From a virus (Duplodnaviria; Heunggongvirae; Uroviricota; Caudoviricetes), in the IMG/VR virus record IMGVR_UViG_3300033146_005641, positions 119,352-183,351 of that record: a DNA stretch of 64,000 bases. One strand, 5' to 3'. Of the stretch, positions 44,650 to 64,000 are shown one piece after another. The position numbers and the translations under genes were made by a program. The notes under the pieces are model-generated. The model saw only the letters and a program-made list of their open reading frames with translations, ran no database searches and had not been told where the DNA came from. How positions within the stretch are numbered: the first letter of the stretch is position 1; each line of letters starts with the position of its first letter.

Positions 44650-44684
44650 GATATCTTCCATAAAGAAGCAAAGGTGGAAATTTA

Positions 44685-45791: not shown

Positions 45792-45795
45792 AAAT

Positions 45796-46020: not shown

Positions 46021-46768
46021 AAAATTATTTAGAAATATTTTACGGATTGAAGGTGATATATCTGGAGAGTGGATGTTTGTTATTTTTAATGATTTTTATA
46101 TGAGACATTTATGGTATAATAAATTCAAAAAAATAGATAGATGTTTTAGAAGATGGAAAAAAGTTTGTAAAGATCCTAAGCTAGAAACAGAATGGAATAA
46201 ACCCGAAATTAACGAAGCTTTAGAAGCGGTTCAAAAGTCTTATGATGAGGGTATAGGCTATTTGTATAAATTCGATGAGGAGGATTTAGCTGAATTTATC
46301 TATCCTAAAGCCAAGAGAGATCTTTTGGTAAATGCAAAACTGGTATATTTCTCAAAACAAGATTCTAGGGATATAGAATTCTTAAAAGAAAATATAATAG
46401 AGATTTATAACGAAAAAAATAAATATTTAAGTAGAATAACTTTATTGTATAACTATATAATTAGAATAAAAGATGAACTGTACGGAGACATATATAATGA
46501 GGTGATTAATTCTAATACTAGGTTTACCTTTCAATTAATATGGCTAACACAGAAAACTCTACATCCTCAAGACTATAAGAGAATATTAAAGAAGGTTTTT
46601 AAAAACACCTCTCAGTCCGAACAAAAATTAATAAAAATGTTTTTAGAGTCCAGAATAGGTAAATATAAAGATAATCCTAGATTTTTAAAGGCTAGAGATC
46701 TTGATTCAGAGAAAAGAGAAATAGCTAAAGAATTAATAGAAGAAATTTGGACTAAGCATGGAAGATAA
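45998..46768 (+). CDS. hypothetical protein
   Basis: Start placed at the ATG at 45998, 5 nt after GGAGAG. The ORF track starts at 45983. Confidence 0.4.
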   Translation: MIDIEWLKKLFRNILRIEGDISGEWMFVIFNDFYMRHLWYNKFKKIDRCFRRWKKVCKDPKLETEWNKPEINEALEAVQKSYDEGIGYLYKFDEEDLAEFIYPKAKRDLLVNAKLVYFSKQDSRDIEFLKENIIEIYNEKNKYLSRITLLYNYIIRIKDELYGDIYNEVINSNTRFTFQLIWLTQKTLHPQDYKRILKKVFKNTSQSEQKLIKMFLESRIGKYKDNPRFLKARDLDSEKREIAKELIEEIWTKHGR

Positions 46769-47606
46769 CCTTAGAACTAATGTAGTATTTTTTACTACTA
46801 CGTGTAATTTAGCCTGTACATATTGTTATCAACACGTAAAAGACTATCCTCATAAAGAAACTTCTAAAGAAGAACTTATAGAAATAGTAGACAGAACAGT
46901 AGAAAGAGAGGGGACTGATTCTCAAACTCTATTCATTCTGTTTGGAGGAGAGCCTACTACAAGATGGGAAAATGTAGAGTTTTTTATGGATTATGCATAT
47001 TTTATTAAGGAAAATGTACAGTTTAATATAGTTACTAATGGAATAAAGTTTAAAGATGACAGATTCTTGAAAAAATTTATATCTAATACTCACTATAAGG
47101 AGGGTAGACTTAAGCTAGAAATAAGTTTTGACGGTATCGAAGGAAATTCTGAAAGAATATATCCGAATGGTAAAGATTCTACAAAAGATGTAGTAGAAGT
47201 ATTATTTAAATTAAAAGAGACAAATACTAAATATAGAATAAGATATACAGTACATAAGAAAAATGTTAAAAACTTTGAAAACGATATTCTAAAGATAATG
47301 AAATACTTTAAACCTGAAAGATTAATTTTAAGCGAGTACGAAGATGATCTATCTTCAGATGAGTTAAAATATGTAGAGAATATTAAGAATATCTTAATCA
47401 AAAAATATTATAATAATGAAATAAACATACCAATATGTATGAAATATGATGAAATGTGTGCTGTGTGTGGTAAATGCGGAAATAAACATATTGAGGATTT
47501 TTCTGTAAATTTAGGAAGTAGTTTTTCAGTACAGAAAAAAATAACATTCGATACGTTCGACATGTTTAATAAATTAGCAAAAAATAAGGATAAAAATGAA
47601 AAATAA
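46758..47606 (+). CDS. radical SAM enzyme with C-terminal Cys cluster
   Basis: CNLACTYCYQ, FGGEPTT, C-terminal CMKYDEMCAVCGKCGN. Confidence 0.75.
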   Translation: MEDNLRTNVVFFTTTCNLACTYCYQHVKDYPHKETSKEELIEIVDRTVEREGTDSQTLFILFGGEPTTRWENVEFFMDYAYFIKENVQFNIVTNGIKFKDDRFLKKFISNTHYKEGRLKLEISFDGIEGNSERIYPNGKDSTKDVVEVLFKLKETNTKYRIRYTVHKKNVKNFENDILKIMKYFKPERLILSEYEDDLSSDELKYVENIKNILIKKYYNNEINIPICMKYDEMCAVCGKCGNKHIEDFSVNLGSSFSVQKKITFDTFDMFNKLAKNKDKNEK

Positions 47607-47982
47607 AATGTCAGAGGATAGAAAAAAATTAAGTTTAGAAGAAAGATCTAAAAAATTTTTAGACATTACTTTAAGAATAAATGAAATTAGTGAAGAATAT
47701 AATGAAATAGATCCCATAGTAGGATATAGATTTCAAGGAATGTTCAGAACTTTTATCTCTCTTATGAAAAGAGCAGAAGAAAAAGATATGACTAATTTAG
47801 AATCTCAAATTAAAGTATTTGAAGAAATGTTTGATTTTAGTTTTGAAGAAGAAGTTGAAAAAAGAGTTAAAGAGGTATTAGGTGACGAATATCACAGAAA
47901 TGTTCAAGAAGATATAAATAAAATAGATGATGAGGTTCTAGCTAATATTAAAAAGAACATTTCAGAATATTTAAAGGAATAG
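47596..47982 (+). CDS. hypothetical protein
   Basis: 128 aa, charged helical. Confidence 0.4.
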   Translation: MKNKMSEDRKKLSLEERSKKFLDITLRINEISEEYNEIDPIVGYRFQGMFRTFISLMKRAEEKDMTNLESQIKVFEEMFDFSFEEEVEKRVKEVLGDEYHRNVQEDINKIDDEVLANIKKNISEYLKE

Positions 47983-47984
47983 AA

Positions 47985-48551
47985 TTGGCTTACGAAACAG
48001 AAATAGATCCTTTCGGAAGTACGGCGTGGGATAATATAGTTTATGATATTAATGATACGCCCGTAGGAGAAATAATAGACGAAGGCGACTGGATAGAATT
48101 GCAAAATATATTTAATCAAGAAATCTCTAGAAGAAGAAACGAAAATCCTAATTTTGGTACGGCAGCATCAACAGGAACTATTATAGATGATGTTCATTAT
48201 AATGATTTCGCCGATGCCATGAATAGCCTTAATGCTTATTATACGGGATCTCCGGGGGGTGCTTGGGCGGGTATTTGTAGCTCTAATAATCCTGTTGGTG
48301 GAATATGGCACTGTAATAAAAAAGAAGGATACGTACCTGTTGTACCTCACGTGTCTCCTGGTCAACTAATCACAGCGACTCAAATTAACAAAATTAAAGA
48401 CGAGATAAAAAAAGCAGGTAACTCATGTTTCTGTAACTGTAACTACTGTGCGTGTAATTGTAACTTTTGTACTTGTAATTGTAATTTTTCTTGTCCTTGT
48501 AATTGTCACTATTCAGATGAAAGACTTAAAACTAATATCTTATATCTATAA
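47985..48551 (+). CDS. protein with extreme Cys-Asn repeat C-terminus (candidate radical SAM substrate or metal-binding tail)
   Basis: C-terminal NSCFCNCNYCACNCNFCTCNCNFSCPCNCHY, 11 Cys in 27 residues. Confidence 0.5.
   Translation: MAYETEIDPFGSTAWDNIVYDINDTPVGEIIDEGDWIELQNIFNQEISRRRNENPNFGTAASTGTIIDDVHYNDFADAMNSLNAYYTGSPGGAWAGICSSNNPVGGIWHCNKKEGYVPVVPHVSPGQLITATQINKIKDEIKKAGNSCFCNCNYCACNCNFCTCNCNFSCPCNCHYSDERLKTNILYL
48426..48509 (+). repeat. coding hexanucleotide microsatellite (TGTAAY/TGTRMY)n encoding the CN repeats
   Basis: TGTTTCTGTAACTGTAACTACTGTGCGTGTAATTGTAACTTTTGTACTTGTAATTGTAATTTTTCTTGTCCTTGTAATTGTCAC. Confidence 0.7.
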
Positions 48552-48597
48552 CACTCATAAATAATCTCACCTTAAGTTTCTTATACTATAATATGGT

Positions 48598-50028
48598 ATG
48601 AGAAACTATAAAAATTCAAACGACCTAATAACATATCTTTGTATAGACTACCTAGAATCTAAAGGCTATAAATTTTTAGAGAATAGAGGATATACTATTT
48701 CTGTGGAAAAAGATGCCGATAAAAATTTTTATTGGACATCTGATTCACCTTTTAAAATATTTCATCCTGTAGAACATAAGACTCACAACTATTTTAAAGA
48801 AATTTCTAAGTTGAGAGAATTTAAAAAATTATGGGGTGAGAAATGTGATGAAGACCTCAATGAAATATTTCAAGAAGAGGATATAAACTCCTATAAAATA
48901 AAAACTAATGTACAAGATCTGGATAATTTTAAAGATGATGTTAGTAATTTTTTAGAGAATTATAAATTTTTAAAGATTTCCTCGCCTATGGCTACTAGAA
49001 AAAGTATTATAATTGAGGAGACACTTAAGCAATCCTTAAGAAAGAGGTTAAGAGTTTTATTTATTACTCCTAGAGTTTCTTTATCCTATGATATCCATAA
49101 AAAATATTTTCCTCACTTATCTCACTATAAACATAGTAATTATACTCTAGGAGATAGTCTAGTAGTTCAATTTGATAGTTTACATAAGTTTGACATGGAT
49201 TATTTTGATATAGTAATATTAGATGAGGTTACCAGTTTAATGTTATATATGAGCGATACGTATGAGGGAAAGGCTGAAAGATATAGAAAAAATCTTCAGA
49301 AATTTTATTCTCTAAAAGATAAAAAATTCTTATTATTAGATGCTTTTCTTTTAAAGTTTCCGCTAGAATCTGAAGACGATAGATCTCTCGGTATATTAAA
49401 TAATTTTAGAGAAGATATAAAAATAACTGAATATGTTAATAAAAACAATTTTACAGGAAGAATAATTAGAGAAGCTAAAAAGAATCCTATATCGGTTTCA
49501 AGTAATGAAAAAAGATTTTTAGTAAAAATTAAAGAAAAACTAGAAAAAAGAGGATTAAGATGTTTGATGCTTAATTCCGAAACCGTAGATAAAGATAGTG
49601 TATATGAAGAGTTTGCAAAAAAAGAAACGGATTATGATGTTATATTATATTCACCTACGTTAACAGTCGGAGTAAGTATTTTTTCTAATATTAAAAATCA
49701 TTTTCATTACGATTTATCCGGAACTATTGACGTTATCAGTTCTATTCAGATGATAAGAAGAGTTAGAAACGCTAAACACATTCATTATTATATTCAGGGT
49801 AGAAGAAGTTTTCTTCCAACGGAGGAAAAAATTATTCAAAGACATTTAGAGGATAGTTTTAAAATTATTAACGAATTTGGAGAATCTTTCGGTATTAATA
49901 AAATAGGTGAAATGTTGAGTAAAATAAAAAGAATAAAAAACGTTTTATTAAATTCTCACAAATATGCTTTTAGAGATTTATTAAAAAGACAATTTAAAGA
50001 AGTAGAATTTAATAAATTGGAGATATGA
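48598..50028 (+). CDS. P-loop NTPase, helicase-like (divergent Walker A SPMATRKS, Walker B ILDEVTSL)
   Basis: 476 aa. The motifs are degenerate and the family is not recognised. Confidence 0.35.
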   Translation: MRNYKNSNDLITYLCIDYLESKGYKFLENRGYTISVEKDADKNFYWTSDSPFKIFHPVEHKTHNYFKEISKLREFKKLWGEKCDEDLNEIFQEEDINSYKIKTNVQDLDNFKDDVSNFLENYKFLKISSPMATRKSIIIEETLKQSLRKRLRVLFITPRVSLSYDIHKKYFPHLSHYKHSNYTLGDSLVVQFDSLHKFDMDYFDIVILDEVTSLMLYMSDTYEGKAERYRKNLQKFYSLKDKKFLLLDAFLLKFPLESEDDRSLGILNNFREDIKITEYVNKNNFTGRIIREAKKNPISVSSNEKRFLVKIKEKLEKRGLRCLMLNSETVDKDSVYEEFAKKETDYDVILYSPTLTVGVSIFSNIKNHFHYDLSGTIDVISSIQMIRRVRNAKHIHYYIQGRRSFLPTEEKIIQRHLEDSFKIINEFGESFGINKIGEMLSKIKRIKNVLLNSHKYAFRDLLKRQFKEVEFNKLEI

Positions 50029-50237
50029 TGGAATTTTATTTTAAAAAGACGCTGTTTGGAATGGTTTTAATGGTAAAAGATAGAAAACCAGGAAATTGGC
50101 CTGGAGAGTGGAAGTATTTTTGGAGAAGAGCATCTCAATTAGAAGCGTCTAATTTTACTACTGAAACAGGAATAGCTAAAAAAGAAGTGGAGAGTTATAG
50201 AGAATTTAAGGATAAGTTCCCTCAATATTTTATCTGA
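50025..50237 (+). CDS. small protein ending ...KFPQYFI
   Basis: 70 aa. Start ATGATGG overlaps the upstream stop. Confidence 0.4.
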   Translation: MMEFYFKKTLFGMVLMVKDRKPGNWPGEWKYFWRRASQLEASNFTTETGIAKKEVESYREFKDKFPQYFI

Positions 50238-50290
50238 TTTTAAGTTTTAATATGTTATAATATATTATACAAAGAGAGAAGGATAGAAAG
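50216..50290 (+). promoter_or_regulatory. junction cassette
   Basis: TTCCCTCAATATTTTATCTGATTTTAAGTTTTAATATGTTATAATATATTATACAAAGAGAGAAGGATAGAAAGATG. Confidence 0.55.
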
Positions 50291-50980
50291 ATGAGGTTTA
50301 GAGACACTAAATATGGCGATTTAACAGGACAAACCTATGAAGGAGATATTGATGTAAGTGGTTTAAACTTAACATCTCTAGAGGGTGCTCCAGAGGTAGT
50401 TAAAGAAGGATTTTACTGTAATGATAATCAATTAACTTCTCTAGAGGGTGCTCCTAAGGTAGTCGACGGTAGTTTTTATTGCTATGATAATCAATTAACC
50501 TCTCTAGAGGGTGCTCCTAAGGTAGTTAGAGGAGATTTTGATTGTTATAATAATAAACTAACTTCTCTAGAAGGGGCTCCTGAGGTAGTTAAAGAAGGAT
50601 TTTACTGTAATGAAAACAGTCTAACTTCTCTAGAGGGTGCTCCTGAGGTAATCGGTGGTAATTTTAATTGCACTTACAACAATTTAACTACTCTAGAAGG
50701 AGCTCCAGAGACAGTTGGTGGTAGTTTTAATTGCTCTAAAAATAATCTAACTTCTCTAGAAGGTGCTCCAGAGGTAGTTAATGGTAATTTTAATTGTTAT
50801 AATAATAAACTTACTTCTCTAGAAGGCGCTCCTGAGAGAGTTAGAAGAGATTTTGATTGTTCAGAAAACGATCTAACTTCTCTAGAGGGATTACCTTTTT
50901 CTAGAGAAATAAGGTCCGATTTTGATGAAAGAGAGATTAATGATTATATTAAAGATAGATTTCCCTATCGTTTTATATGA
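50291..50980 (+). CDS. LTSLEGAP 21-aa repeat protein (paralog)
   Basis: MRFRDTKYGDLTGQTYEGDIDVSGLNLTSLEGAPE..., C-terminal ...RFPYRFI. Confidence 0.7.
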   Translation: MRFRDTKYGDLTGQTYEGDIDVSGLNLTSLEGAPEVVKEGFYCNDNQLTSLEGAPKVVDGSFYCYDNQLTSLEGAPKVVRGDFDCYNNKLTSLEGAPEVVKEGFYCNENSLTSLEGAPEVIGGNFNCTYNNLTTLEGAPETVGGSFNCSKNNLTSLEGAPEVVNGNFNCYNNKLTSLEGAPERVRRDFDCSENDLTSLEGLPFSREIRSDFDEREINDYIKDRFPYRFI

Positions 50981-51033
50981 TTTTAAGTCTTATTATACTA
51001 TAATATCTTATATAAAGAGAAAAGGATAGAAAG
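50963..51033 (+). promoter_or_regulatory. junction cassette
   Basis: CCCTATCGTTTTATATGATTTTAAGTCTTATTATACTATAATATCTTATATAAAGAGAAAAGGATAGAAAGATG. Confidence 0.55.
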
Positions 51034-51912
51034 ATGAAGTTTAGAGATACTAAATATGGCGATTTAACAGGACAACCTTATGAAGGTGATGTTGATGTAA
51101 GTGGTTTAAACTTAACATCTCTAGAGGGTGCTCCTGAGGCGGTCGATGGAGATTTTAATTGTTCTAGTAACAATCTAACCTCTCTAGAGGGTACTCCTAA
51201 GGTAGTTGAAGGAGATTTTTACTGCTCTCACAACAATTTAACTTCTCTAGAAGGAGCTCCTGAGATAGTTAATGGTAATTTTAATTGCACTTACAACAAT
51301 TTAGCCTCTCTAGAAGGGGCTCCGGAGGTAATAGATGGTAGTTTTTACTGCTATGATAATCAATTAACTTCTCTAGAAGGGGCTCCTAAGGCAGTTAAAG
51401 GAGATTTTGATTGTTATAATAATAAACTTACTTCTCTAGAAGGTGCTCCAGAGGTAGTTAAAGAAGGATTTTACTGTAATGAAAACGGTCTAACCTCTTT
51501 AGAAGGAGCTCCAGAGATAGTTGATGGTAGTTTTTACTGCTATGATAATCGATTAACCTCTCTAGAAGGAGCTCCTGAGGTAGTCGGTGGTAATTTTAAT
51601 TGCTCTAAAAACAATCTAGCTTCTCTAGAAGGAGCTCCTAAGGTAGTTAATAATAATTTTGATTGCTCTAAAAATAATCTAGTCTCTCTAGAAGGATCTC
51701 CTGAGGTAGTCGGTGGTAGTTTTTACTGCTATGATAATCGATTATCTTCTCTAGAAGGTGCTCCTAAGATAGTTAAAGAAGGGTTTCACTGTAATAAAAA
51801 CAATCTAACTTCTCTAGAGGGAATACCCTATTCTAAAGGAATAATAGCTGATTTTAGTAAACTAGAAGTTAATGATTACCTAAAATCTAAATTTCCTTAT
51901 CATTTTATCTGA
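51034..51912 (+). CDS. LTSLEGAP 21-aa repeat protein (paralog)
   Basis: MKFRDTKYGDLTGQPYEGDVDVSGLNLTSLEGAPE..., C-terminal ...KFPYHFI. Confidence 0.7.
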   Translation: MKFRDTKYGDLTGQPYEGDVDVSGLNLTSLEGAPEAVDGDFNCSSNNLTSLEGTPKVVEGDFYCSHNNLTSLEGAPEIVNGNFNCTYNNLASLEGAPEVIDGSFYCYDNQLTSLEGAPKAVKGDFDCYNNKLTSLEGAPEVVKEGFYCNENGLTSLEGAPEIVDGSFYCYDNRLTSLEGAPEVVGGNFNCSKNNLASLEGAPKVVNNNFDCSKNNLVSLEGSPEVVGGSFYCYDNRLSSLEGAPKIVKEGFHCNKNNLTSLEGIPYSKGIIADFSKLEVNDYLKSKFPYHFI

Positions 51913-51961
51913 TTTTAGGTCTCTTTATTCTATAATATATTATATAAAGAAGGATAGAAAG
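51895..51961 (+). promoter_or_regulatory. junction cassette
   Basis: CCTTATCATTTTATCTGATTTTAGGTCTCTTTATTCTATAATATATTATATAAAGAAGGATAGAAAGATG. Confidence 0.55.
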
Positions 51962-53029
51962 ATGACGTTTAAAGATACTAAGTATGGTGATTTAACAGGA
52001 CAAACCTATAAAGGTGATATTAATGTATGTGGTTTAGATTTAACCTCTCTAGAAGGGGCTCCAGAGGTAGTTGATGGTAGTTTTTACTGCTATGATAATC
52101 AACTAACCTCTCTAGAAGGATCTCCTGAGGTAGTCGATGGTAATTTTTACTGTTATGATAATCAATTAACTTCTCTAGAAGGGGCTCCAGAGGTAGTTGA
52201 TGGTAATTTTTATTGTCATAATAATCAATTGACTTCTCTAGAAGGATCTCCGGAGGTAGTCAGCGGTATTTTTTATTGTTATAATAATAGACTTACTTCT
52301 CTAGAGGGGTCTCCTAAGATAGTTAAAGGAGATTTTTATTGCTCTTACAACAATTTAACTTCTCTAGAGGGGGTTCCGGAGGTAGTTGATGGTAGTTTTT
52401 ATTGCTATGATAATCGATTATCCTCTCTAGAAGGAGCTCCTAGGATAATCGATGGTAATTTTTATTGTTATAATAATCGACTAATTTCTCTAGAAGGTGC
52501 TCCAGAGGCAGTTGATGGTAATTTTTATTGTTATAATAATCGATTAACTTCTCTAGAAGGCTCTCCAGAGGTAGTCGACGATAATTTTGATTGTTCAGAA
52601 AATGATCTAGCTTCTCTAGAAGGGTCTCCTAGAGTAGTTAATAATAATTTTGATTGCTCTAAAAATAATCTAGTCTCTCTAGAAGGATCTCCTGAGGTAG
52701 TTAGAGGATATTTTGATTGTTCAAACAATCAACTAACTTCTCTAGAGGGAGCTCCAGAGATAGTTAAAGAAGGCTTTTACTGTAATAAAAACGATCTAGT
52801 TTCCCTAGAGGGGGCTCCTGAGGTAGTCGATGGTAATTTTAATTGTGCTAAAAATAATCTAACTACGCTAGAAGGGGCTCCTAAGGTAGTTGATGGTAAT
52901 TTTTACTGCTATGATAATCGATTAACTTCTCTAGAGGGATTACCTTTTTCTAGAGAAATAAGGTCTGATTTTAGTAAACTAGAAGTTAATGATTACTTAA
53001 AATCTAAATTCCCTTATCATTTTATCTGA
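51962..53029 (+). CDS. LTSLEGAP 21-aa repeat protein (paralog, longest)
   Basis: MTFKDTKYGDLTGQTYKGDINVCGLDLTSLEGAPE..., C-terminal ...KFPYHFI. Confidence 0.7.
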   Translation: MTFKDTKYGDLTGQTYKGDINVCGLDLTSLEGAPEVVDGSFYCYDNQLTSLEGSPEVVDGNFYCYDNQLTSLEGAPEVVDGNFYCHNNQLTSLEGSPEVVSGIFYCYNNRLTSLEGSPKIVKGDFYCSYNNLTSLEGVPEVVDGSFYCYDNRLSSLEGAPRIIDGNFYCYNNRLISLEGAPEAVDGNFYCYNNRLTSLEGSPEVVDDNFDCSENDLASLEGSPRVVNNNFDCSKNNLVSLEGSPEVVRGYFDCSNNQLTSLEGAPEIVKEGFYCNKNDLVSLEGAPEVVDGNFNCAKNNLTTLEGAPKVVDGNFYCYDNRLTSLEGLPFSREIRSDFSKLEVNDYLKSKFPYHFI

Positions 53030-53082
53030 TTTTAAGTCTTATTACACTATAATATATTATATAAAGAAAGAAGAATAGAAAG
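53012..53082 (+). promoter_or_regulatory. junction cassette
   Basis: CCTTATCATTTTATCTGATTTTAAGTCTTATTACACTATAATATATTATATAAAGAAAGAAGAATAGAAAGATG. Confidence 0.55.
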
Positions 53083-53415
53083 ATGAGAAAGCTTACAAAA
53101 TCAGAACTTAATTTATATAAGGATTATATTTCAGGATATGTATCATTATTATCACCTGAAGAAATGTCTGAAGAAATGGAAATCGAAATTGAAGATACCG
53201 AAACAGGAAAAATAATAACTTCAGGTACCTTTAATCCTTCTTATTTTGTAGAATCTGCTTCAGCAGTAAAAACAGAAGAAATAAATGAACTAAAAAATAT
53301 AATTGAAAGATATGAAAAATTTCTTAATAGAATGTCAATAAAAACAGAATATTATGATATAGATGATATGATAGATGGTCTAGAAGACTATGATGTAGTA
53401 ACTCAAAAAGGATAA
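53083..53415 (+). CDS. hypothetical acidic protein
   Basis: 110 aa. Follows a junction cassette. Confidence 0.4.
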   Translation: MRKLTKSELNLYKDYISGYVSLLSPEEMSEEMEIEIEDTETGKIITSGTFNPSYFVESASAVKTEEINELKNIIERYEKFLNRMSIKTEYYDIDDMIDGLEDYDVVTQKG

Positions 53416-53511
53416 TGATAATACAGAAACTTATAGGTACAATATTACTGATTATAGTGTGTATGAAAAATAACCTACTAGTAAATAATTTAATCTTATA
53501 AAGGAGGAGAA

Positions 53512-53823
53512 ATGGAAATAATGTTTTCGTGGTTTTGGATATTTAGCCTATTCAAATTAATCACAATAGTCGGGTTTACATATTTTATTGTAAAATATAC
53601 AGAATCTAAAAAACTAATATATGCTATTTTAGCTGGATTTTTGCTTATAGCGATAATGGTATTTAGTTCTATTAAAATCAATTCTACAGATTCGAAGAAT
53701 TTTAATAGTTTACAAAATAGTGCTATTGAATCTATTAAAACAACACCAGAAAAGATTAGAGATGATTCTTTTAAAATAGAATCTAATAAAGATATTAGAA
53801 TTAAAAAATCTGATTTAAAATAA
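53512..53823 (+). CDS. small membrane protein
   Basis: Two hydrophobic segments (FSWFWIFSLFKLITIVGFTYFIV; LIYAILAGFLLIAIMVF). AAAGGAGGAGAAATG RBS. Confidence 0.45.
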   Translation: MEIMFSWFWIFSLFKLITIVGFTYFIVKYTESKKLIYAILAGFLLIAIMVFSSIKINSTDSKNFNSLQNSAIESIKTTPEKIRDDSFKIESNKDIRIKKSDLK

Positions 53824-53832
53824 GGAGAAAAA

Positions 53833-54201
53833 ATGAAGAAAATCGGAATGTTATTGTTATTAGGAATTATTACTGTTGTAGTTGCTAAAGGTGTAGGTGC
53901 TAGAGGTGTAGATTATATGTGTAAGCCTGTTGCTTATAGAAATATAAACAAGCCAGACAAGACGATAATGTTTACAATGGATGAACAAAATAGAAGAGGT
54001 CTTTTAAAAATTAGAGTAGATGAGGGAAGAGATATTAGAGATGATGATGGCGTGGTTTTAAAACACACTAGTGGTAACGTTTATAAGGGCGAGGGTATGG
54101 TAAGCGAATTCGAGGATTTCGAAGATAAAAAAGTCTTTTCACTTACAGGCGTTTCGGCGTATCCGCGTATAAATATTTACATTTGTTATAAATCTAATTA
54201 G
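53833..54201 (+). CDS. secreted or membrane-anchored small protein with signal peptide
   Basis: MKKIGMLLLLGIITVVVAKG signal-like N-terminus. AAGGAGAAAAAATG RBS. Confidence 0.45.
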   Translation: MKKIGMLLLLGIITVVVAKGVGARGVDYMCKPVAYRNINKPDKTIMFTMDEQNRRGLLKIRVDEGRDIRDDDGVVLKHTSGNVYKGEGMVSEFEDFEDKKVFSLTGVSAYPRINIYICYKSN

Positions 54202-54256
54202 GAGGAAAAAATGAAGAAACTTGGAATGCTATTAGCTACTTTTAGTAGCGATTTTT

Positions 54257-55084
54257 ATGTTATCTGGATGTAATGAACAAGTGCCTGCAGGAACGGTTGG
54301 AAAGATTATGGGTAAGAATGGGTGGCAGCCAGAAATTTATCCACCATCTAGGGTTTGGATAAAAACCGCTTTTACGATGACACCCGAGAAACTATTTTTA
54401 GTACAAACTACTACTCAAAAATTTGTACAACCTATCAGGGTTCTTTTAAAAGATAAATTGACTTTAAATGCTGAGATTGTTTTTAGAGGAAGAGTTTCTA
54501 CTAATCCTAAAATTCTTAATTCATTATTTAATGATATGCCTATGAATGACAATATCATTACGGTTTCTGAAGTGTATAATACTTATGGAAAGATGATTGT
54601 TCTTAATACGGCGAGAGAGGTAATTTCAAAATATAATGTAGATGAGGTTAATAAAAATTATGCAAGAATTACTATAGAATTGTATAATGCTATTAAACCA
54701 AAACTTAAAAATCTACCTATTTCTATTAGCGATGTAACTATTGGAAATATTGAATATCCTAAAATTGTAACAGAGGCTATTGAAAAAGCTAAACAAAGAA
54801 GAATGGCTATTGAACAAGAACAGGCTCAAGTTCAGATTGAACTAACTAGAGCTAAAGGTAGAGAGGCGGTAGCAAAAGCAGAATATAGAATTAAAATGCT
54901 TGAAGCTAAAAGAATTAGAGATTATAATAGAATGATTGAACAAGGTGTTACTCCAAATCTTTTAAAACTTAGAAGATTAGAGGTGCAAGAGAAAATGATT
55001 GACGCTATTAAGAATAATAAAAATGTCATTTATATGCCTTTAGATATGATGAATAATAGCTCAAATATGAGAATTATTAAGTAG
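54257..55084 (+). CDS. SPFH/band-7 (HflK/C-prohibitin-like) domain protein, probable lipoprotein whose signal peptide lies in an upstream frame (54211..54256)
   Basis: C-terminal AIEKAKQRRMAIEQEQAQVQIELTRAKGREAVAKAEYRIKMLEAK is typical of SPFH coiled-coil regions. ATG at 54211 with an AGGAGGAAAAAATG RBS encodes MKKLGMLLATFSSDF. It is out of frame by one nt at a T5 run (54252-54256) with the MLSGC (lipobox LSGC) start of the long ORF. Confidence 0.55.
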   Translation: MLSGCNEQVPAGTVGKIMGKNGWQPEIYPPSRVWIKTAFTMTPEKLFLVQTTTQKFVQPIRVLLKDKLTLNAEIVFRGRVSTNPKILNSLFNDMPMNDNIITVSEVYNTYGKMIVLNTAREVISKYNVDEVNKNYARITIELYNAIKPKLKNLPISISDVTIGNIEYPKIVTEAIEKAKQRRMAIEQEQAQVQIELTRAKGREAVAKAEYRIKMLEAKRIRDYNRMIEQGVTPNLLKLRRLEVQEKMIDAIKNNKNVIYMPLDMMNNSSNMRIIK

Positions 55085-55137
55085 TTTTAATTCGGGTTCC
55101 TTCGGGAGCTCTTTTTAAAATTATAGAAGGAGAAAAA

Positions 55138-55548
55138 GTGGAAAAATCAGATAGAATTATAATTCATTCGAGTGATGTTATATACATTAGTAAAAATGTA
55201 GATATATTAAAAAGAGATGGTAGAGTTCTAAATACTCCCGAACACATATCATATTCTGCAGACTCTGTATCTTTAAAAGTATCTAATTTACAAAATATAA
55301 ATGAAATAATATTCGTTAAAGATTTTAAAGCTTTTAATAATGCAACTCTACAATATGATCAGAAAGCTGAATATCATATACCTGTATCGTTTTATGAAGA
55401 AGATGAATTATATGTTATGCGTTATGACGTTACGATTATGGTTAAAGAAAAAAAATTAGCTAGAAATATTTTCCATTTTTTTAATGAGTTAGTCTCTGAT
55501 AATATTAGCAATATTGATAATCTAATAACAGATAATTATAAAATTTAA
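55138..55548 (+). CDS. hypothetical protein
   Basis: 136 aa. GTG-adjacent ATG with GGAGAAAAAGTGG leader. Confidence 0.4.
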   Translation: MEKSDRIIIHSSDVIYISKNVDILKRDGRVLNTPEHISYSADSVSLKVSNLQNINEIIFVKDFKAFNNATLQYDQKAEYHIPVSFYEEDELYVMRYDVTIMVKEKKLARNIFHFFNELVSDNISNIDNLITDNYKI

Positions 55549-55559
55549 AAGGGTAAAAT

Positions 55560-56477
55560 ATGAATGATTATAAGCTAGAGGGTTTTCCTGATATTATAAG
55601 AGAATCTATAAAGGAAACACCGCCTATAAGATCTAGAAATGAAATTATAAAAATTTTAGAAAACATCATAGATTTAGAGGGTCTTCACTTTTATGTTTTT
55701 GGAGGATCTCAACATCTTTTAGATATTAGTAATGAATTTACGAATAATTCCGATATAGATTTTTTCTTTCCTACAGAAGAGGATTATAAAGAAATGTTAA
55801 AGAGGATGAGAAATAGCAAGAAATGCTATTTCTCCTCTTCTAAATTTTCAGACCATACATCTTTAAATGATTTTACACTTCAGCTAATAAATTATAAATT
55901 TGGCGACCATCACTATCATTTTGACGAGTTTGATCTTAATAAATCTAAAATCGGATTTGAATATATAGACGGAAAACTAATAGATAGAAGAGGAGATGAC
56001 TATGAAGATGATCTTTATATAATTTACGAGAAATTTAATGTTCAAACCGCAAATAGATATATAAAATATTTTTATAGATGCTATGATAAGAATCATCTTG
56101 AAGATTTATCTCATCCGGTCTCTTATAGCTTTTTAAAAGACATAGAACATATATCATCCTACCTAATATCTAATGAAAATATAAAATATGATTCATATAA
56201 TAATAATTTCAAAATAGGATATCAAATTCTTGAATCATTAGTAAGAATATTAGTGGATAATGGTGAAATATCCTCTAAATGCATAGATATCATCTTAGAG
56301 GAAATGAAAAAGAAATGGAACACTAGTAAAGTTATTAGTTTTTGGAAGATTTTTTACGAAGGTGTAATCAATAACTATAACTCTATGCATAGAGATGAAA
56401 TATATTCTGCTCACTCTTCTCTACATTCTAAAGTATCGGTCGAATTTAAAAATAAATTTCCTCAATATTTTATCTAG
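55560..56477 (+). CDS. Pol-beta-type nucleotidyltransferase-fold protein ending ...KFPQYFI
   Basis: FGGSQHLLDISNEFTNNSDIDFFF (GGS x12 DID signature). Confidence 0.45.
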   Translation: MNDYKLEGFPDIIRESIKETPPIRSRNEIIKILENIIDLEGLHFYVFGGSQHLLDISNEFTNNSDIDFFFPTEEDYKEMLKRMRNSKKCYFSSSKFSDHTSLNDFTLQLINYKFGDHHYHFDEFDLNKSKIGFEYIDGKLIDRRGDDYEDDLYIIYEKFNVQTANRYIKYFYRCYDKNHLEDLSHPVSYSFLKDIEHISSYLISNENIKYDSYNNNFKIGYQILESLVRILVDNGEISSKCIDIILEEMKKKWNTSKVISFWKIFYEGVINNYNSMHRDEIYSAHSSLHSKVSVEFKNKFPQYFI

Positions 56478-58911: not shown

Positions 58912-59421
58912 GTGAAGAATTTAATAAGAGCTAAAAATAATTGGATACTAAAAATATTTATAGAACATCCTACATCTCTACTTGTTGGACTAATTTTAGT
59001 ATCTATGACTGTTTTTATACCTTTTGAAGTTGTAACGGTAATATTAGTATTATTATTCTATATTATATGGGGATCTGTATATGTTAGTCATTTTGATAAT
59101 GATAATCTAATAGAATTTGGATTTTTAACTTCTTTTATAATTATTTTAATTATTTTAGGATTTACTTGGAATTATTTTGATTATAAACCTGTTAATAGCG
59201 TTGTAGAAGAATATAAAAATCTAAAATACGTATGGGATGAAAATAAACACGGGATTTCGTATAAATTTTATAATCCCGAAACTAGAGAAATCATATTTGA
59301 TAAAAATATAAAAAATCCTAACTTTATAAAGAAAGAATCATACAACGTTAAAAAATTAAATTATAACTATCAATGGTTTCAAATTGCCAGGACTAAATAC
59401 GTAATTGAAGGATTAGAATAA
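58912..59421 (+). CDS. membrane protein, probable GTG start
   Basis: AAGGAGAAAGAA then GTG at 58912. Hydrophobic segments LLVGLILVSMTVFIPFEVVTVILVLLFYIIWG and FLTSFIIILIILGFTW. The ORF track's 58813 start overlaps the upstream gene. Confidence 0.4.
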   Translation: MKNLIRAKNNWILKIFIEHPTSLLVGLILVSMTVFIPFEVVTVILVLLFYIIWGSVYVSHFDNDNLIEFGFLTSFIIILIILGFTWNYFDYKPVNSVVEEYKNLKYVWDENKHGISYKFYNPETREIIFDKNIKNPNFIKKESYNVKKLNYNYQWFQIARTKYVIEGLE

Positions 59422-59669
59422 TGGAGAGATATGGTAGATATAATAAGTTAGGATTTTTTAAATTTGATTCTATACATCCTGAGGATTTACCAAAAGTAAT
59501 CAAAATAATAGAAACCGGAGATCTTACTCTTAAAAGCTATACAAAAGATTTCTTTAATTTTGCTCTTATACCGGCTTTTATTTTTTATCCTTTTTTTCTA
59601 GGATATTGGGGTATAGAAAGATTTAGATTTTATCTATTTCTTAAAAAACATCCTCAATATAGAATCTAA
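59421..59669 (+). CDS. small membrane protein ending ...HPQYRI (variant tail)
   Basis: 82 aa. FALIPAFIFYPFFLGYWGI hydrophobic segment. Confidence 0.4.
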   Translation: MERYGRYNKLGFFKFDSIHPEDLPKVIKIIETGDLTLKSYTKDFFNFALIPAFIFYPFFLGYWGIERFRFYLFLKKHPQYRI

Positions 59670-59724
59670 TCTGATTTTAAGTCTTATAATACAATATATT
59701 ATATAAAGAGAGAAGGATAGAAAG
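59652..59724 (+). promoter_or_regulatory. junction cassette (deletion variant in tail-coding part)
   Basis: CCTCAATATAGAATCTAATCTGATTTTAAGTCTTATAATACAATATATTATATAAAGAGAGAAGGATAGAAAGATG. Confidence 0.5.
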
Positions 59725-59970
59725 ATGATAGTTTTATATCAAAATAGAAACGAGAATGATGAATTATATTACGCTGAACTTTTGACAGATCCTCATCTTA
59801 TTGAGGAAGGTATATCATATATAAGTGTAGGTACTAATCATAGACTGAATTCACCTCATATATCTGATTGGAAAAAATTATATATAAACTCGGTAAATTT
59901 GAAAGATGTTGTGTGTCTTTATAGAGATATGGATTCATTAAAATGGCATCAAGCGGCTTATTTTATATGA
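59725..59970 (+). CDS. hypothetical protein ending ...AAYFI
   Basis: 81 aa. Confidence 0.4.
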   Translation: MIVLYQNRNENDELYYAELLTDPHLIEEGISYISVGTNHRLNSPHISDWKKLYINSVNLKDVVCLYRDMDSLKWHQAAYFI

Positions 59971-59979
59971 GGATTAGGA

Positions 59980-60234
59980 ATGTATAATAGAGATTTATAT
60001 TTTGATAAAGGAGAATATTTTTTATATTCTTTTAATGACGAACCAGATATAATAGAGATAGTATTAAAACTTTATTCTAAGAAAAGAAATTATACTAATG
60101 TATTAACATTAATAGGCTCGTATACCAACAAATATAATATTTACAGATTCACTCCAGATTTCATAGTTCGAGAATTAGGTCACTTTGAAAGTTTTGATGA
60201 GTTAAAAAGAGCATATCCACAATATTTTATATAA
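59980..60234 (+). CDS. hypothetical protein ending ...AYPQYFI
   Basis: 84 aa. Confidence 0.4.
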   Translation: MYNRDLYFDKGEYFLYSFNDEPDIIEIVLKLYSKKRNYTNVLTLIGSYTNKYNIYRFTPDFIVRELGHFESFDELKRAYPQYFI

Positions 60235-60244
60235 GGAGAGAAAA

Positions 60245-60454
60245 ATGAAAGCATTGATTATTTATCAGGGAGAGTTAAGAACAGGAACATATTATCCTCC
60301 TACGAGATGGAAAGATCTTAAAAAAGAATTAAAGAGAGGTAAATATATTTCTTTAGATAGGGGGTCAATAAAGTTAGTTAAAAATAAAGACATCATATGC
60401 TCGAGAGAGACTGAGGAAGATATTAAAAGAGATTTTCCACAATATTTTATTTAA
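60245..60454 (+). CDS. hypothetical protein ending ...DFPQYFI
   Basis: 69 aa. AAGGAGAGAAAAATG RBS. Confidence 0.4.
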   Translation: MKALIIYQGELRTGTYYPPTRWKDLKKELKRGKYISLDRGSIKLVKNKDIICSRETEEDIKRDFPQYFI

Positions 60455-60501
60455 TTTTAAGAATATTATAGTATAATTATAATACAAAAGAGGAGAGAGA
60501 A

Positions 60502-61116
60502 ATGAAAGAAAAACTTTTAGAAAAGACTGAGATGACCGTTTCAGAAGGATTAGCAAAGCTTAAGTTGCTTGATAAACGTATTCGTAAAGCTATGACTTCA
60601 AAATATGTTGGATATAAAATAGGTAGCAAAGTTCAAGAAAATTTTGAAAGTGAAAAGGCTAAATCAAACTATCAATCTTTAAATGATCTGATAAAATACC
60701 GTTCAAACCTTAAAATGGCTATTAATGAGTCAAACCTTAAAACTAAAGTTAAAGTTGCAGGTAAGAAAATGACAGCTCTTGAGGCTATCGAATATAAAAC
60801 TACTATCCAGTATAAAAAAGAATTCTTAGAAAGTATTAGAAAAAACTACATACGTGTTCAGCAAAGAATTGAGTATATAAATGAAGAAATTCAAGAACGT
60901 CTAGATTCTCAAGTAAAAAGTGCTTTTGAAAAAGCCAGTAAAAAAGAGATCGAAGATTTTACTCAAACTTTTCTAAAAAATAATGGTGTTTCGTTAGAAG
61001 ATCCTTTAAGGATTGAGAATCTTATCGAGTCTCTTGATAGAGAAATTGACGAATTCGAGAGTGAGGTAGACTTTGTTTTATCTACTTCTAATGCAACAAC
61101 AGTGATTAAGGTTTAA
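60502..61116 (+). CDS. hypothetical coiled-coil protein
   Basis: 204 aa. AGAGGAGAGAGAAATG RBS. Confidence 0.45.
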   Translation: MKEKLLEKTEMTVSEGLAKLKLLDKRIRKAMTSKYVGYKIGSKVQENFESEKAKSNYQSLNDLIKYRSNLKMAINESNLKTKVKVAGKKMTALEAIEYKTTIQYKKEFLESIRKNYIRVQQRIEYINEEIQERLDSQVKSAFEKASKKEIEDFTQTFLKNNGVSLEDPLRIENLIESLDREIDEFESEVDFVLSTSNATTVIKV

Positions 61117-61430
61117 TACCTTTTTCACCGTTGATCTTTTATAGAAATTCATCGAAAAGGTCAAAATCACTCTGCCTTCTAATTGCAGTGAAATTAGAGC
61201 TTTAATAATAAAAGAAGCTAATACGTATAATTTGGTTCGATTCCAAAGTAAAGCTAAAAGTAAAGCTCAAAGATTAGAGGTAAGAGTTCAAGGCTTAAAG
61301 TTTAAATTTTTATAAGTTTAACACTTAAAGAATAAAGGTTGATTAAACCCCGGAGTAACGGAGTAAGATAGTGATATCGGACCATCCGCCGGGCTGATGA
61401 GTTTCTATAAGAGATTTCGAAGGAGTAAAA
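61117..61430 (+). other. ORF-free, GC-richer intergenic segment with a tRNA T-arm-like element and several hairpins; possible structured RNA or tRNA remnant
   Basis: TTTGG TTCGATT CCAAA (61231-61247) is a canonical T-stem-loop, followed by GTAAAGC, which pairs with GCTTTAA at 61199-61205. No room for full D and anticodon arms. Downstream GC stem CCCGG..(35 nt)..CCGGG (61349-61393). Confidence 0.3.
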
Positions 61431-61850
61431 ATGAGATACGTATTTTCTTTACCTCAGGTTTCATCTAAACTAGTTAGAGTGTATGCTGCATCTATAGAAG
61501 TATTAACCTATGATGATGAGAGTAAACTAATTAAAGCGGAAAGGTGGGTAGACGGAGAATTAAAAGAGTTTAACCATAATAAGCGTAGATTTTACGTACA
61601 AAAAGCAGATGTTAAAAATATTATATCTCAATGTAAAGATAATAAAAATCCTCAAGTATTATTTAGAGGCGAAATTAAATCATATTATACTGACAATAAA
61701 CAGGAAGCCATACTAATACAACTGTATTATGCTAGCTATATTAAAGAATTGATGGAGAAAAAAAAGAATAGATTAGAGAAAATTATTGATACTCTTCCTA
61801 AGGAAGATGAGGATTTTATCAAGAATAATTTTCCACATTATTTTATTTAA
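61431..61850 (+). CDS. hypothetical protein ending ...NFPHYFI
   Basis: 139 aa. AAGGAGTAAAAATG RBS. Confidence 0.45.
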   Translation: MRYVFSLPQVSSKLVRVYAASIEVLTYDDESKLIKAERWVDGELKEFNHNKRRFYVQKADVKNIISQCKDNKNPQVLFRGEIKSYYTDNKQEAILIQLYYASYIKELMEKKKNRLEKIIDTLPKEDEDFIKNNFPHYFI

Positions 61851-61879
61851 TTTAAAATCATATGATATAAGAGGAAAAG

Positions 61880-62176
61880 ATGATAGAATGGAAAGATTTA
61901 GAGGTTGGGGATGTATTTATCTATAGGTTTGAAAAAGATTCTTATTTTTTAGCATATGTTTTACGGGCTAATAAAGATGTAAGTATCGAGATTCAAGATA
62001 TAAAGAATATTTCAAGAGGTGTGTCGAAAGGTATGTCCATAGAAGTAGATTCTTTTAATATATTTTTTAGTGATAAATATGATATGAGTACTTTTAAATT
62101 AGTAAAATATTTAGGTAATTTGAAAGGTGGAAGAGTAGAAGAGTTTAGTGTTAAGTTTCCTCAATATTTTATATAG
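61880..62176 (+). CDS. 98-aa protein, tandem paralog 1, ending ...VKFPQYFI
   Basis: MIEWKDLEVGDVFIYRFEKDSYFLAYVL... Confidence 0.5.
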   Translation: MIEWKDLEVGDVFIYRFEKDSYFLAYVLRANKDVSIEIQDIKNISRGVSKGMSIEVDSFNIFFSDKYDMSTFKLVKYLGNLKGGRVEEFSVKFPQYFI

Positions 62177-62229
62177 CTTTAAGATATATTACAATATAAT
62201 ATATTATATAAAGAGAAAAGGATAGAAAG
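62159..62229 (+). promoter_or_regulatory. junction cassette
   Basis: CCTCAATATTTTATATAGCTTTAAGATATATTACAATATAATATATTATATAAAGAGAAAAGGATAGAAAGATG. Confidence 0.5.
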
Positions 62230-62526
62230 ATGAGAGAATGGAAAGATTTAGAAGTTGGGGATGTATTTATCTATAGGCTTGAAAAAGATTATTATTTTTT
62301 AGCATATGTTTTACAAGCTAACGAAGATGTAAGTATCGAGATTCAAGATATAAAGAATATTTCAAGCGGTATATTAAAAGATGCGCCTATAGAAGTAGAT
62401 TATTTTAATATATTTTTTAATGGTAAATATGATATGAACACTTTTAAATTAGTAAAATATTTAGGTAATTTGAAAGGTGGAAGAGTAGAAGAGTTTAGTG
62501 TTAAGTTTCCTCAATATTTTATCTAA
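62230..62526 (+). CDS. 98-aa protein, tandem paralog 2, ending ...VKFPQYFI
   Basis: MREWKDLEVGDVFIYRLEKDYYFLAYVL... Near-identical to 61880..62176 except for a central patch. Confidence 0.5.
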   Translation: MREWKDLEVGDVFIYRLEKDYYFLAYVLQANEDVSIEIQDIKNISSGILKDAPIEVDYFNIFFNGKYDMNTFKLVKYLGNLKGGRVEEFSVKFPQYFI

Positions 62527-62575
62527 TTTTAGGTTATTTTATTCTATAATATATTATATAAAGAAGGATATAAAG
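62509..62575 (+). promoter_or_regulatory. junction cassette
   Basis: CCTCAATATTTTATCTAATTTTAGGTTATTTTATTCTATAATATATTATATAAAGAAGGATATAAAGATG. Confidence 0.5.
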
Positions 62576-63391
62576 ATGAAGTTTAGAGACACTAAATACG
62601 GTGATTTAACAGGACAAACCTATGAAGATAATATTGATGTATGTGGTTTAGATTTAACCTCTCTAGAGGGTGCTCCTGAGATAGTTAATGGTAGTTTTTA
62701 CTGCTATGATAATCAACTAACTTCTCTAGAGGGTGCTCCTAAGACAATCGATGGTAGTTTTAATTGCTCTAGCAACAATCTAACTTCTCTAGAAGGAGCT
62801 CCAGGGGCAGGTAAAGACGGGTTTTACTGTAATAACAACAATCTATCTTCTCTAGAGGGTTCTCCTAGGATGGTCGATGGTAATTTTAATTGCTCTTACA
62901 ACAATTTAACTTCTCTAGAAGGAGCTCCAGGAGTAGTTAATGGTAGTTTTTACTGTTATGATAATCAACTAACCTCTCTAGAAGGAGCTCCGGAGGTAGT
63001 TAATAATAATTTTAATTGTTCAGATAATCAACTAACTTCTCTAGAAGGAGCTCCAGGAGTAGTTAATGGTAATTTTAATTGCTTTAGCAATCAATTAACT
63101 TCCCTAGAGGGGGCTCCGAAGGTAGTTAGTGGTAGTTTTGAATGTTCTTACAATAATCTAACTTCTCTAGAAGGAGCTCCGGAGGTAGTTAATAATAATT
63201 TTAATTGCTCTAAAAATAATCTAACCTCTCTAGAAGGAGCCCCTAAGGTAGTTAGTGGTAATTTTTACTGTTATGATAATCGATTAGCTTCATTAGGATA
63301 TCTACCCTACTCTAAAAATGTTAGTTCAGATTTTAATAAAAATGAAGTTAATGATTACTTAAAATCTAAATTCCCTCAACATTTTATCTGA
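62576..63391 (+). CDS. LTSLEGAP 21-aa repeat protein (paralog)
   Basis: Start at the ATG at 62576 (MKFRDTKYGDLTGQTYEDNIDVCGLDLTSLEGAPE). The ORF track's 62498 GTG start runs through the junction cassette. C-terminal ...KFPQHFI. Confidence 0.7.
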   Translation: MKFRDTKYGDLTGQTYEDNIDVCGLDLTSLEGAPEIVNGSFYCYDNQLTSLEGAPKTIDGSFNCSSNNLTSLEGAPGAGKDGFYCNNNNLSSLEGSPRMVDGNFNCSYNNLTSLEGAPGVVNGSFYCYDNQLTSLEGAPEVVNNNFNCSDNQLTSLEGAPGVVNGNFNCFSNQLTSLEGAPKVVSGSFECSYNNLTSLEGAPEVVNNNFNCSKNNLTSLEGAPKVVSGNFYCYDNRLASLGYLPYSKNVSSDFNKNEVNDYLKSKFPQHFI

Positions 63392-63402
63392 TTTTAAGTC
63401 TA
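63374..63402 (+). promoter_or_regulatory. truncated junction cassette (tail-coding part plus TGATTTTAAGTCT only; promoter, RBS and ATG missing)
   Basis: CCTCAACATTTTATCTGATTTTAAGTCT is followed immediately by mid-repeat coding sequence. Confidence 0.5.
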
Positions 63403-63990
63403 GAGGTAGTTAAAGGAAGTTTTTACAGCTTTAATAATCAATTAACCTCTCTAGAGGGTGCTCCAGAGGTAGTTAGAGGAAATTTTAATTGTTCTAACAA
63501 CAATTTAACCTCTCTAGAGGGTGCTCCTAAGGTAGTTAGAGGAGATTTTGATTGTTATAATAATAAACTAACTTCTCTAGAGGGTGCTCCTAAGGTAGTT
63601 AGAGGAGATTTTGATTGTTATAATAATAAACTAACCTCTCTAGAAGGGGCTCCTAGGGCAGTTAATGGTAATTTTAATTGCTCTAGCAACAATTTAGCTT
63701 CTCTAGAAGGAGCTCCTAAGACAGTTAAAGGAGATTTTTATTGTTCTTACAACGATCTAACTTCTCTAGAGGGAGTTCCGGAGGTAGTCGATGGTAGCTT
63801 TTACTGTAATGAAAACAATCTAACTACTCTAGAAGGAGCTCCTAAGGCAGTTAAAGGAGATTTTTACTGCTATGATAATCGATTAACTTCATTAGGATAT
63901 CTACCCTACTCTAAAAATGTTAGTTCAGATTTTAATAAAAATGAAGTTAATGATTACTTAAAATCTAAATTCCCTCAACATTTTATCTGA
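63403..63990 (+). pseudogene. 5'-truncated, start-less LTSLEGAP repeat-gene fragment (mosaic of paralog sequences) ending ...KFPQHFI
   Basis: In-frame repeat units (EVVKGSFYSFNNQLTSLEGAPEVVRGNFNCSNNNLTSLEGAPKVVRGDFDCYNNKLTSLEG...) begin directly after TGATTTTAAGTCT. No ATG, GTG or TTG lies in frame between the upstream stop (63352-63354) and the TGA at 63988-63990. Segments are identical to parts of the 10176 and 50291 genes. Confidence 0.6.
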
Positions 63991-64000
63991 TTTTAAGTCT
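63972..64000 (+). promoter_or_regulatory. next junction cassette (cut by window end)
   Basis: CCCTCAACATTTTATCTGATTTTAAGTCT at the window edge. Confidence 0.45.

Follow-up and report, generated by a model that had tools for sequence, protein, structure and literature searches.

The right-hand end of the window, by which we mean the whole 64,000-nucleotide stretch analysed here, holds a full-length leucine-rich-repeat (LRR) gene and, directly downstream on the same strand, a further LRR copy that begins in the middle of a repeat unit and has no start codon (Table 1). Five full-length LRR paralogues are present in the window (genes 10176, 50291, 51034, 51962 and 62576), each with its own ATG and its own copy of an intergenic cassette that we call the junction. 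All five begin with the same cap, M[KRT]F[RK]DTKYGDLTGQ(T/P)Y, which the start-less copy lacks, and continue with 7 to 14 perfectly periodic 21-aa units of the form LTSLEGAPxxVxGxFxCxxNx and a tail some 30 aa long. No unit departs from the 21-aa period, the units of the start-less copy included. With regard to family membership, the start-less copy matched Pfam LRR_4 (CL0022) with 32.9 bits (E = 7e-8; cut-off 27), and the paralogues scored from 25 to 39.6 bits. The unit cores of the 64-kb window (61 of 61) all fall within the five genes and the start-less copy, and the window thus contains one start-less copy. This is a large family, with more than 7000 homologues in metagenomes, and its PHROG matches are to entries of unknown function. 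Homologues also form back-to-back arrays of 3–10 LRR genes in other viral contigs, each array with a specific N-terminal domain and tail, and Vibrio phage SRILMA has a single homologue that adjoins a DnaB-like helicase gene. The 50291 gene sits downstream of a helicase gene, matching the SRILMA arrangement.

Table 1. Features at the right-hand end of the window (positions are those of the window).
Feature	Position	Strand	Remarks
Full-length LRR gene, 271 aa	62576..63391	+	Cap MKFRDTKYGDLTGQTYED, ten 21-aa units, tail ...SLGYLPYSKNVSSDFNKNEVNDYLKSKFPQHFI; LRR_4 29.5 bits
114-nt perfect repeat, copy 1	63288..63401	+	3' tail of the 62576 gene, stop, 10 nt of junction; 104 nt within gene ranges
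LRR frame open between two stops, 206 codons + TGA	63370..63990	+	-1 relative to the 62576 gene
Junction stub TGATTTTAAGTCT, 13 nt including stop	63389..63401	+	Junction cut after ...AAGTCT
Partial first unit (E)VVKGSFYSFNNQ	63402..63441	+	Begins right after the GCTCC position; Cys to Ser (AGC)
Seven complete 63-nt LRR units	63442..63882	+	Unit-by-unit identity comparison
C-terminal tail LTSLGYLPYSKNVSSDFNKNEVNDYLKSKFPQHFI + TGA	63883..63990	+	Derived 'SLGYLP' form, otherwise only in the 62576 gene
114-nt perfect repeat, copy 2	63887..64000	+	Identical to copy 1

The window has a GC content of 28%. PHROG scans, which took in 17 of its proteins, recognised both topoisomerase II subunits, the large terminase, RnlA, several helicases and a radical-SAM protein. 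The nearest relatives of the large terminase, found in Vibrio phage phiKT1024 and its relatives and in the Campylobacter CP220/CPt10 group, are 41–43% identical, and these distant relatives together with the PHROG matches indicate that the window is part of an uncultured, distant T4-like myophage. A megablast of the window against 50,697 phage records gave no near-identical DNA, and an exact-protein look-up of three window proteins returned no record. For the locus at 60–64 kb, a search with a neighbouring protein found no closer relative and a two-sequence alignment search returned only a contig that was already known. A search of GTDB genomes for the LRR cap pattern gave no match.

The junction follows the stop codon of at least eight plus-strand genes. 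Its copies are near-identical, about 75 nt each, with the consensus stop-TGATTTTAAGTCT-tattayac-TATAATATATTATATAAAGA-garAAGGAtagaaag-ATG (where TGATTTTAAGTCT includes the stop), and the normal continuation after TGATTTTAAGTCT is TATTAYACTATAAT. About 15 copies of the -10 core lie on the plus strand of the window, and in these the TATAAT, AAGGA and ATG are kept perfectly. The -35 box is weak, and a two-hexamer promoter scan scored none of the junction copies in 59000–64000. Predicted folds of -6.3 and -4.8 kcal/mol were no better than those of shuffled sequences (z = +0.8 and +2.2), and no terminator-like site was found on the plus strand of 59000–64000. The conserved block also extends into the last six codons of the upstream gene ((F/Y)PQYFI); a literature search for the string 'PQYFI' gave no paper containing it.

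Downstream of the 62576 gene the junction breaks off, and TGATTTTAAGTCT runs straight into AGAGGTAGTT, the middle of a 63-nt LRR unit, forming a novel joint at 63401/63402. The remaining stub is without the -10 TATAAT, the AAGGA and the ATG that are found in all other copies, which bears out the claim of an earlier note on this DNA that promoter, ribosome-binding site and start codon are missing. The sequence right of the joint is AGAGGTAGTTAAAGG (AGAGGTAGTTAAAGGAAG), and since the same string is preceded by GCTCC in intact units (GCT CCA GAG GTA GTT), the joint lies mid-unit. The note had also described the reading as continuing in frame across the joint. An open frame does lead into the middle of the unit, but it is in the -1 register relative to the 62576 gene, and hence there is no in-frame readthrough from that gene. 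The reported absence of ATG, GTG and TTG was likewise correct and applies to the whole LRR frame 63370–63990, the rare start candidates being limited to ATT 63370, CTG 63388 and ATT 63391. However, it should be underlined that internal start codons are rare in this family, the five full genes having 3 ATG, GTG or TTG in 1350 codons, so that the probability of finding none in 206 codons is about 0.63 and their absence from the interior is not an additional oddity.

The units of the start-less copy resemble different paralogues. Unit 1 is 94% identical to a unit of the 10176 gene, and the identity with that gene proposed earlier was found as an exact 48-mer at 10335 and 63460. Units 2 and 3, duplicated in tandem, show 100% and 97% identity to the 50291-gene unit at 50495; here the proposed identity appears as a 53-mer at 50510, 63520 and 63583, with a match that reaches 77 nt (50495 = 63505). 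For units 4 to 7 the best matches are 83–89% identical. Stretches specific to 63402–63880 include VVKGSFYSFNNQ and GVPEVVDGSFYCNENNLTTLEGAPK. The copy terminates, as had been noted, in the family C-terminus with KFPQHFI and a second junction: ...KSKFPQHFI is followed by TGA and TGATTTTAAGTCT at 63988–64000, so the copy ends ...KSKFPQHFI-TGA-TTTTAAGTCT at base 64000. The 114-nt repeat shared with the neighbouring gene lengthens to 141 nt when 2 mismatches are allowed, and the identity of the two 114-nt tails shows a recent exchange with the 62576 gene.

As no terminator-like site follows the 62576 gene, the start-less copy is probably transcribed as its 3' extension. It is probably not translated, to judge from the lack of any combination of ribosome site and start, and would then be a pseudogene fragment or scar. 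We nevertheless considered whether ribosomes could enter it by reinitiation at CTG 63388, the only conceivable reinitiation codon, or by a -1 slip near CAT TTT ATC TGA, with fusion to the 62576 protein as the result. The frame is open from 63370 in the -1 register, the CTG is in frame and overlaps the upstream TGA at 63389–63391 (CTGA), and the ORF is intact. In contrast, direct reading of the 22 nt between 63370 and 63391 reveals no X XXY YYZ heptamer, and the fold 3' of the joint is no stronger than that of shuffled controls (z = -0.46); a programmed -1 frameshift was rejected on these two grounds. Furthermore, ATCTGATTTT recurs at most other junctions and has therefore not evolved for frameshifting or reinitiation at this place, and a CTG initiates very weakly when no ribosome site precedes it. 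We accordingly see no plausible entry for translation in the predicted signals and regard expression of the copy by either route as very unlikely. A gene on the opposite strand was also rejected, as its frames contain 12–24 stops each.

The reading frame of the start-less copy is nevertheless intact, with 0 in-frame stops versus 12–40 in the other five frames, and 4.9% of the possible substitutions in the 196-codon ORF would create a stop. Compared with each paralogue, its body gave pN values of 0.17–0.21, pS values of 0.33–0.46 and dN/dS ratios of 0.29–0.47, the same range as for intact pairs, which shows that the body is an old, ordinary member of the family and not a fresh partial duplicate. 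Over its full length it matches the 3' 592 nt of the 62576 gene best, in register and at 81% identity. A recent tandem duplication of 62803–63401 was rejected, since only the last 114–141 nt are near-identical and the seven units are 75–86% identical in register (pS 0.39), and the 81% best match equally speaks against a collapsed-repeat copy of another paralogue. A truncation of recent date would account for the intact frame, and so would repeated conversion of patches by intact paralogues; maintenance by selection is equally compatible with it.

It is also evident that the mosaic patches are a property of the whole family and not peculiar to the start-less copy. The mean identity of best-matching units is 0.88–0.905 in all six loci (0.88–0.90 in the five genes, 0.905 in the start-less copy), and every family gene has units whose best match, at 81–100% identity, lies in another gene. 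Exact patches link other pairs as well: g51034 has 68 nt in common with g51962 and 43 nt with g50291.

The surroundings of the joint, and the corresponding regions of related contigs, bear further marks of rearrangement. Upstream, the tandem duplicate genes at 61880 and 62230 (98 aa each) are each bounded by junctions. Three relatives with 70–91% nucleotide identity to the window (L034, L035 and L039) differ from it in the number and order of junction-bounded genes, and the LRR genes of L034 have a doubled start, MKFKKMKF. The contig L017 holds an intact LRR ORF from which the RBS and ATG have been removed by an independent deletion of about 30 nt (...TATAATATATTATAAT joined to TAGTGATACAAAATATGG). 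In the syntenic relative L020/L039 there is one LRR gene, the start-less copy is absent at the corresponding site, and the window has none of the genes that follow downstream of this site.

The window closes on the final base of the second TGATTTTAAGTCT, exactly where the first junction breaks off, and the chance of an arbitrary cut falling at that base is roughly 1e-4. Moreover, 8 of the 12 related contigs with this LRR subfamily start or finish inside an LRR unit or a junction (L034 ends in ...TTTCCTCAATATT and L030 in ...CCCTATCATTT). The position of the window end at this 13-mer, combined with the breaking of the relatives' contigs in repeats, makes a contig end at a repeat branch the most likely explanation, and this is probably where the window stops. 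Metagenome assemblies of such phages thus stop exactly in these repeats.

These same features would be expected if the joint were an assembly artefact or a minority variant. The assembler would in that case have followed a read or amplification chimera, or a rare deletion variant, because the regular assembly path crosses the multi-copy junction and cap repeats. In the dominant genome the start-less copy would then form the 3' portion of an ordinary LRR gene with its own promoter, or its copy number would be mis-stated. The window stops exactly where two continuations would diverge, the joint lies 599 nt from the probable contig end in a repeat-rich region, and the 114-nt perfect repeat (141 nt with mismatches) is about the size of an assembler k-mer. 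Neither the source contig nor the joint was found in any collection searched, the exact joint plus tail having no match in IMG/VR, JGI metagenomes or GTDB genomes. However, the 2–10 nt of similarity available is insufficient for a de Bruijn or overlap assembler to invent such a joint, and k-mers spanning 63401/63402 must exist in reads; as the body of the copy can be entered only via the joint, the joint should be present in some molecules at least. Elsewhere this assembly crossed at least eight other junction copies correctly, and the L017 deletion, which removed a start in a different way, comes from an independent assembly. We consider an artefact or minority variant the main rival, though an unlikely one with a small but appreciable chance of being correct.

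The interpretation that we favour, with some reserve, is that 63402–63990 is probably a 5'-truncated sixth LRR paralogue, a recombination scar from an illegitimate join, situated at a contig end. It is homologous to intact genes and its expression signals are missing. The earlier note had named such a scar as one of two possible origins, and this proposal agrees well with the single truncated copy, the 2-nt imperfect microhomology at the join and the other junction-bounded duplications and rearrangements nearby. Only an imperfect TC(T/C) is shared at the joint, which indicates an illegitimate join at the level of microhomology rather than a homologous exchange. We infer that a single join may have linked junction position +13 (...AAGTCT) to the point after GCTCC in a unit (AGAGGTAGTT...), and it would thereby have removed the -10 box, the ribosome site, the ATG, the 27-residue N-terminal cap and at least the first unit. 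The junction cassettes of about 75 nt and the 63-nt units of this hyperplastic region would offer a substrate for unequal and patchy recombination. Against it stands the intact ORF of 196 codons, and the second, independently start-less but intact ORF in L017 could hint at silencing without destruction. The good state of the ORF might be explained if the truncation were recent relative to the age of the paralogues, or if patchy conversion from intact paralogues had been refreshing the sequence. A truncated paralogue is by itself of little importance; as a clean example, it illustrates how genes arise and are lost in the junction- and repeat-rich hyperplastic regions of T4-like phages.

The other origin proposed in the earlier note was a silent donor cassette of the pilS or vls type, in which the start-less copy would serve as a dedicated reservoir whose units are gene-converted into the expressed LRR genes, diversifying a host-interaction protein. 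The copy is indeed promoterless and without a 5' coding region, intact and bounded by shared sequence; it has exact patches of 48, 77 and 114 nt in common with three paralogues, its dN/dS shows no decay, L017 holds another start-less intact copy, and recombination is very active in T4-like phages. The proposed architecture was nevertheless not upheld. There is one silent copy versus five expressed, promoter-bearing genes in 64 kb, conservation of the locus does not extend to the syntenic relative L020/L039, and the first partial unit has Ser where all other units have an invariant Cys. Patch sharing is equally strong among the expressed genes, which makes donor and recipient indistinguishable. 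In 14 further viral arrays, which together comprise about 60 LRR ORFs, the sole start-less ORF is L009 3–293, which is cut at the locus edge; a frameshifted LRR gene in L027, from a separate scan, is the only internal exception to the rule that each gene has its own start. With regard to cis elements, there is no G4 motif near the copy (the window has a single G4-like motif, which lies 15 kb off at 48245), no inverted repeats flank it apart from weak 70%-complementary matches that derive from the palindromic unit core, and no specific repeat brackets it beyond the ordinary family tail and junction. A literature search for silent cassettes in phage genomes gave no paper describing such. We therefore judge a dedicated donor to be very unlikely, although the fragment may be used passively as a recombination partner.

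A related idea is that the start-less copy represents the first visible member of a silenced but intact LRR reserve, from which phage recombination splices segments into the promoter-bearing genes. Further copies may lie beyond 64000, the contig breaking where a tandem 599-bp cassette would create a branch, and the start-less intact LRR gene of L017 would be a second instance. A lytic phage would thereby have a gene-conversion route for varying a family of host-interaction proteins. The fragment would gain in importance if it were maintained, as conversion from a silent reserve into the five LRR genes would be a mode of diversification undescribed for lytic phages. We regard such a reserve as very unlikely.

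In layout and genomic role, the junction resembles the promoter-early stem-loops (PeSL), which are regulatory cassettes of hyperplastic regions in T4-type phages (Arbiol et al. 2010, PMC2839356; Comeau et al. 2014, PMC4122927). Like PeSL, it is a repeated intergenic cassette, and it leads from the upstream stop through an AT-rich stretch to a putative sigma-70-like -10 box, a Shine-Dalgarno sequence and an ATG. The junction copies cluster between small genes of unknown function, as PeSL do, and insertions, deletions and duplications bounded by junctions distinguish neighbouring regions in the related phages. In contrast to PeSL, the junction has neither a stable stem-loop nor a terminator component, its -35 box is weak, and its conserved block enters the final codons of the upstream gene. 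The event described here also differs in being an illegitimate break inside a cassette instead of an exchange from cassette to cassette.

The LRR arrays of other uncultured large phages contain the same repeat of 21–22 aa (LxSLEGAPxxVxGxFxCxxNx), but essentially every copy there has its own start, which makes the start-less state exceptional.

Silent cassettes that feed antigenic variation by gene conversion are known from pilE/pilS of Neisseria and vlsE/vls of Borrelia, with a G4 motif next to pilE and 17-bp direct repeats around the vls cassettes as cis elements. The start-less copy is similar to these in lacking promoter, ribosome site and 5' coding region (and here also the cap), in its conserved flanks and in the patches that it shares with expressed genes. 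In contrast to a single expression locus with a silent array, the window has a single silent copy beside five independently promoted genes, and it resides in a lytic phage and not in a cellular pathogen. Furthermore, neither the G4 motif nor the direct-repeat cis elements are present, and the shared patches carry no direction of transfer. Shufflon-type systems also contain start-less alternative 3' segments, which are bounded by inverted repeats and adjoin an invertase gene. An invertible or shufflon cassette, as in the Mu G segment, the P1 C segment or the R64 shufflon, was rejected for the present locus on account of the direct orientation of the copy and the absence of inverted repeats.

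Finally, the tail-fibre adhesin genes of T-even phages, which Tetart and colleagues are said to have described in 1998, are reportedly mosaics that exchange segments by recombination at short conserved motifs. The LRR family is comparable in that short motifs within the genes, here the 20-nt unit core TCTCTAGARGGNGCTCC, can be regarded as crossover points that give rise to patchwork genes. It differs from the adhesins in that its products are small LRR proteins, functionally uncharacterised and with early-type, promoter-like cassettes, and not the tips of tail fibres, and in that the exchange takes place between paralogues of one genome.

An intact LRR gene copy in a related phage (contig L017) has lost its ribosome site, ATG and first codons through a deletion of about 30 nt within the junction, and is a second, independent start-less member of the LRR family. 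A start-less LRR-plus-tail ORF also occurs in an unrelated viral LRR array (L027), where a frameshift in one gene has separated it from an N-terminal ORF. Coordinates are listed in the table.

Features located in the window and in other viral contigs
Feature	Coordinates	Location or context
G-quadruplex-like run	48245-48271	window, inside ORF 47985-48551
Tandem 98-aa paralogues	61880-62176 and 62230-62526	window, immediately 5' of the LRR gene at 62576
ORF ends with the C-terminal motif (examples)	13851, 23168, 50237, 56477, 58208, 60234, 60454, 61850, 62176, 62526	window, + strand
Intact LRR ORF, 188 codons, with cap and tail	L017:4780-5410	IMGVR_UViG_3300003873_000009, related phage
Frameshift-split LRR gene	L027:2409-3054	IMGVR_UViG_3300033156_001153, unrelated viral LRR array
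Single LRR homologue	L001:5950-6585	Vibrio phage VB_VaC_SRILMA, PP083314.1

The earlier note had likened the cassette to silent donor copies of the pilS and vls type, a reading that we tested by looking for a G-quadruplex motif and inverted repeats around it. The sole G-quadruplex-like run in the window is the GC-rich patch GGGATCTCCGGGGGGTGCTTGGGCGGG, in a genome of 28% GC. The weak inverted-repeat matches arise because the LRR unit cores hold the palindrome TCTAGA, which lies within TCTCTAGARGG and is present in most of the 61 cores (e.g. at 62660 and 63448).

With regard to the promoter-like junction, 17 + strand ORFs of unrelated families in the window end with a C-terminal motif, (F/Y/H)P(Q/Y/H)(Y/H/R)(F/R/I)(I/L)-stop, typically FPQYFI, which in most of these ORFs forms the junction's coding 5' edge. 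Since three of these ORFs (ends 13851, 60234 and 61850) carry the motif without a junction after it, it may also be a C-terminal motif of the proteins themselves; no paper containing the string PQYFI was found in the literature. The junction also bounds each of the two 98-aa genes, which are about 85% identical to each other.

The closest relative found, L034 (contig Ga0256837_1000497), shows 85–91% nucleotide identity to window 41909-56469. At the locus matching 50291-53029 it has three LRR genes, two of them with a doubled start, MKFKKMKF(S/R)DT... (L034:8950-9800), and the contig end falls within the FPQYFI-coding stretch of a junction. Overall, 8 of 12 related-phage contigs begin or end within an LRR unit or junction (contig ends of L016, L028, L030-L035 and L037); metagenome assemblies are systematically broken by these elements.

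In Vibrio phage SRILMA, the LRR homologue matches the 62576 protein over residues 59-271, tail included, at 55% identity. It adjoins the DnaB-like helicase gene, an arrangement resembling that of window 48598-50980, where a helicase gene is followed by an LRR gene.
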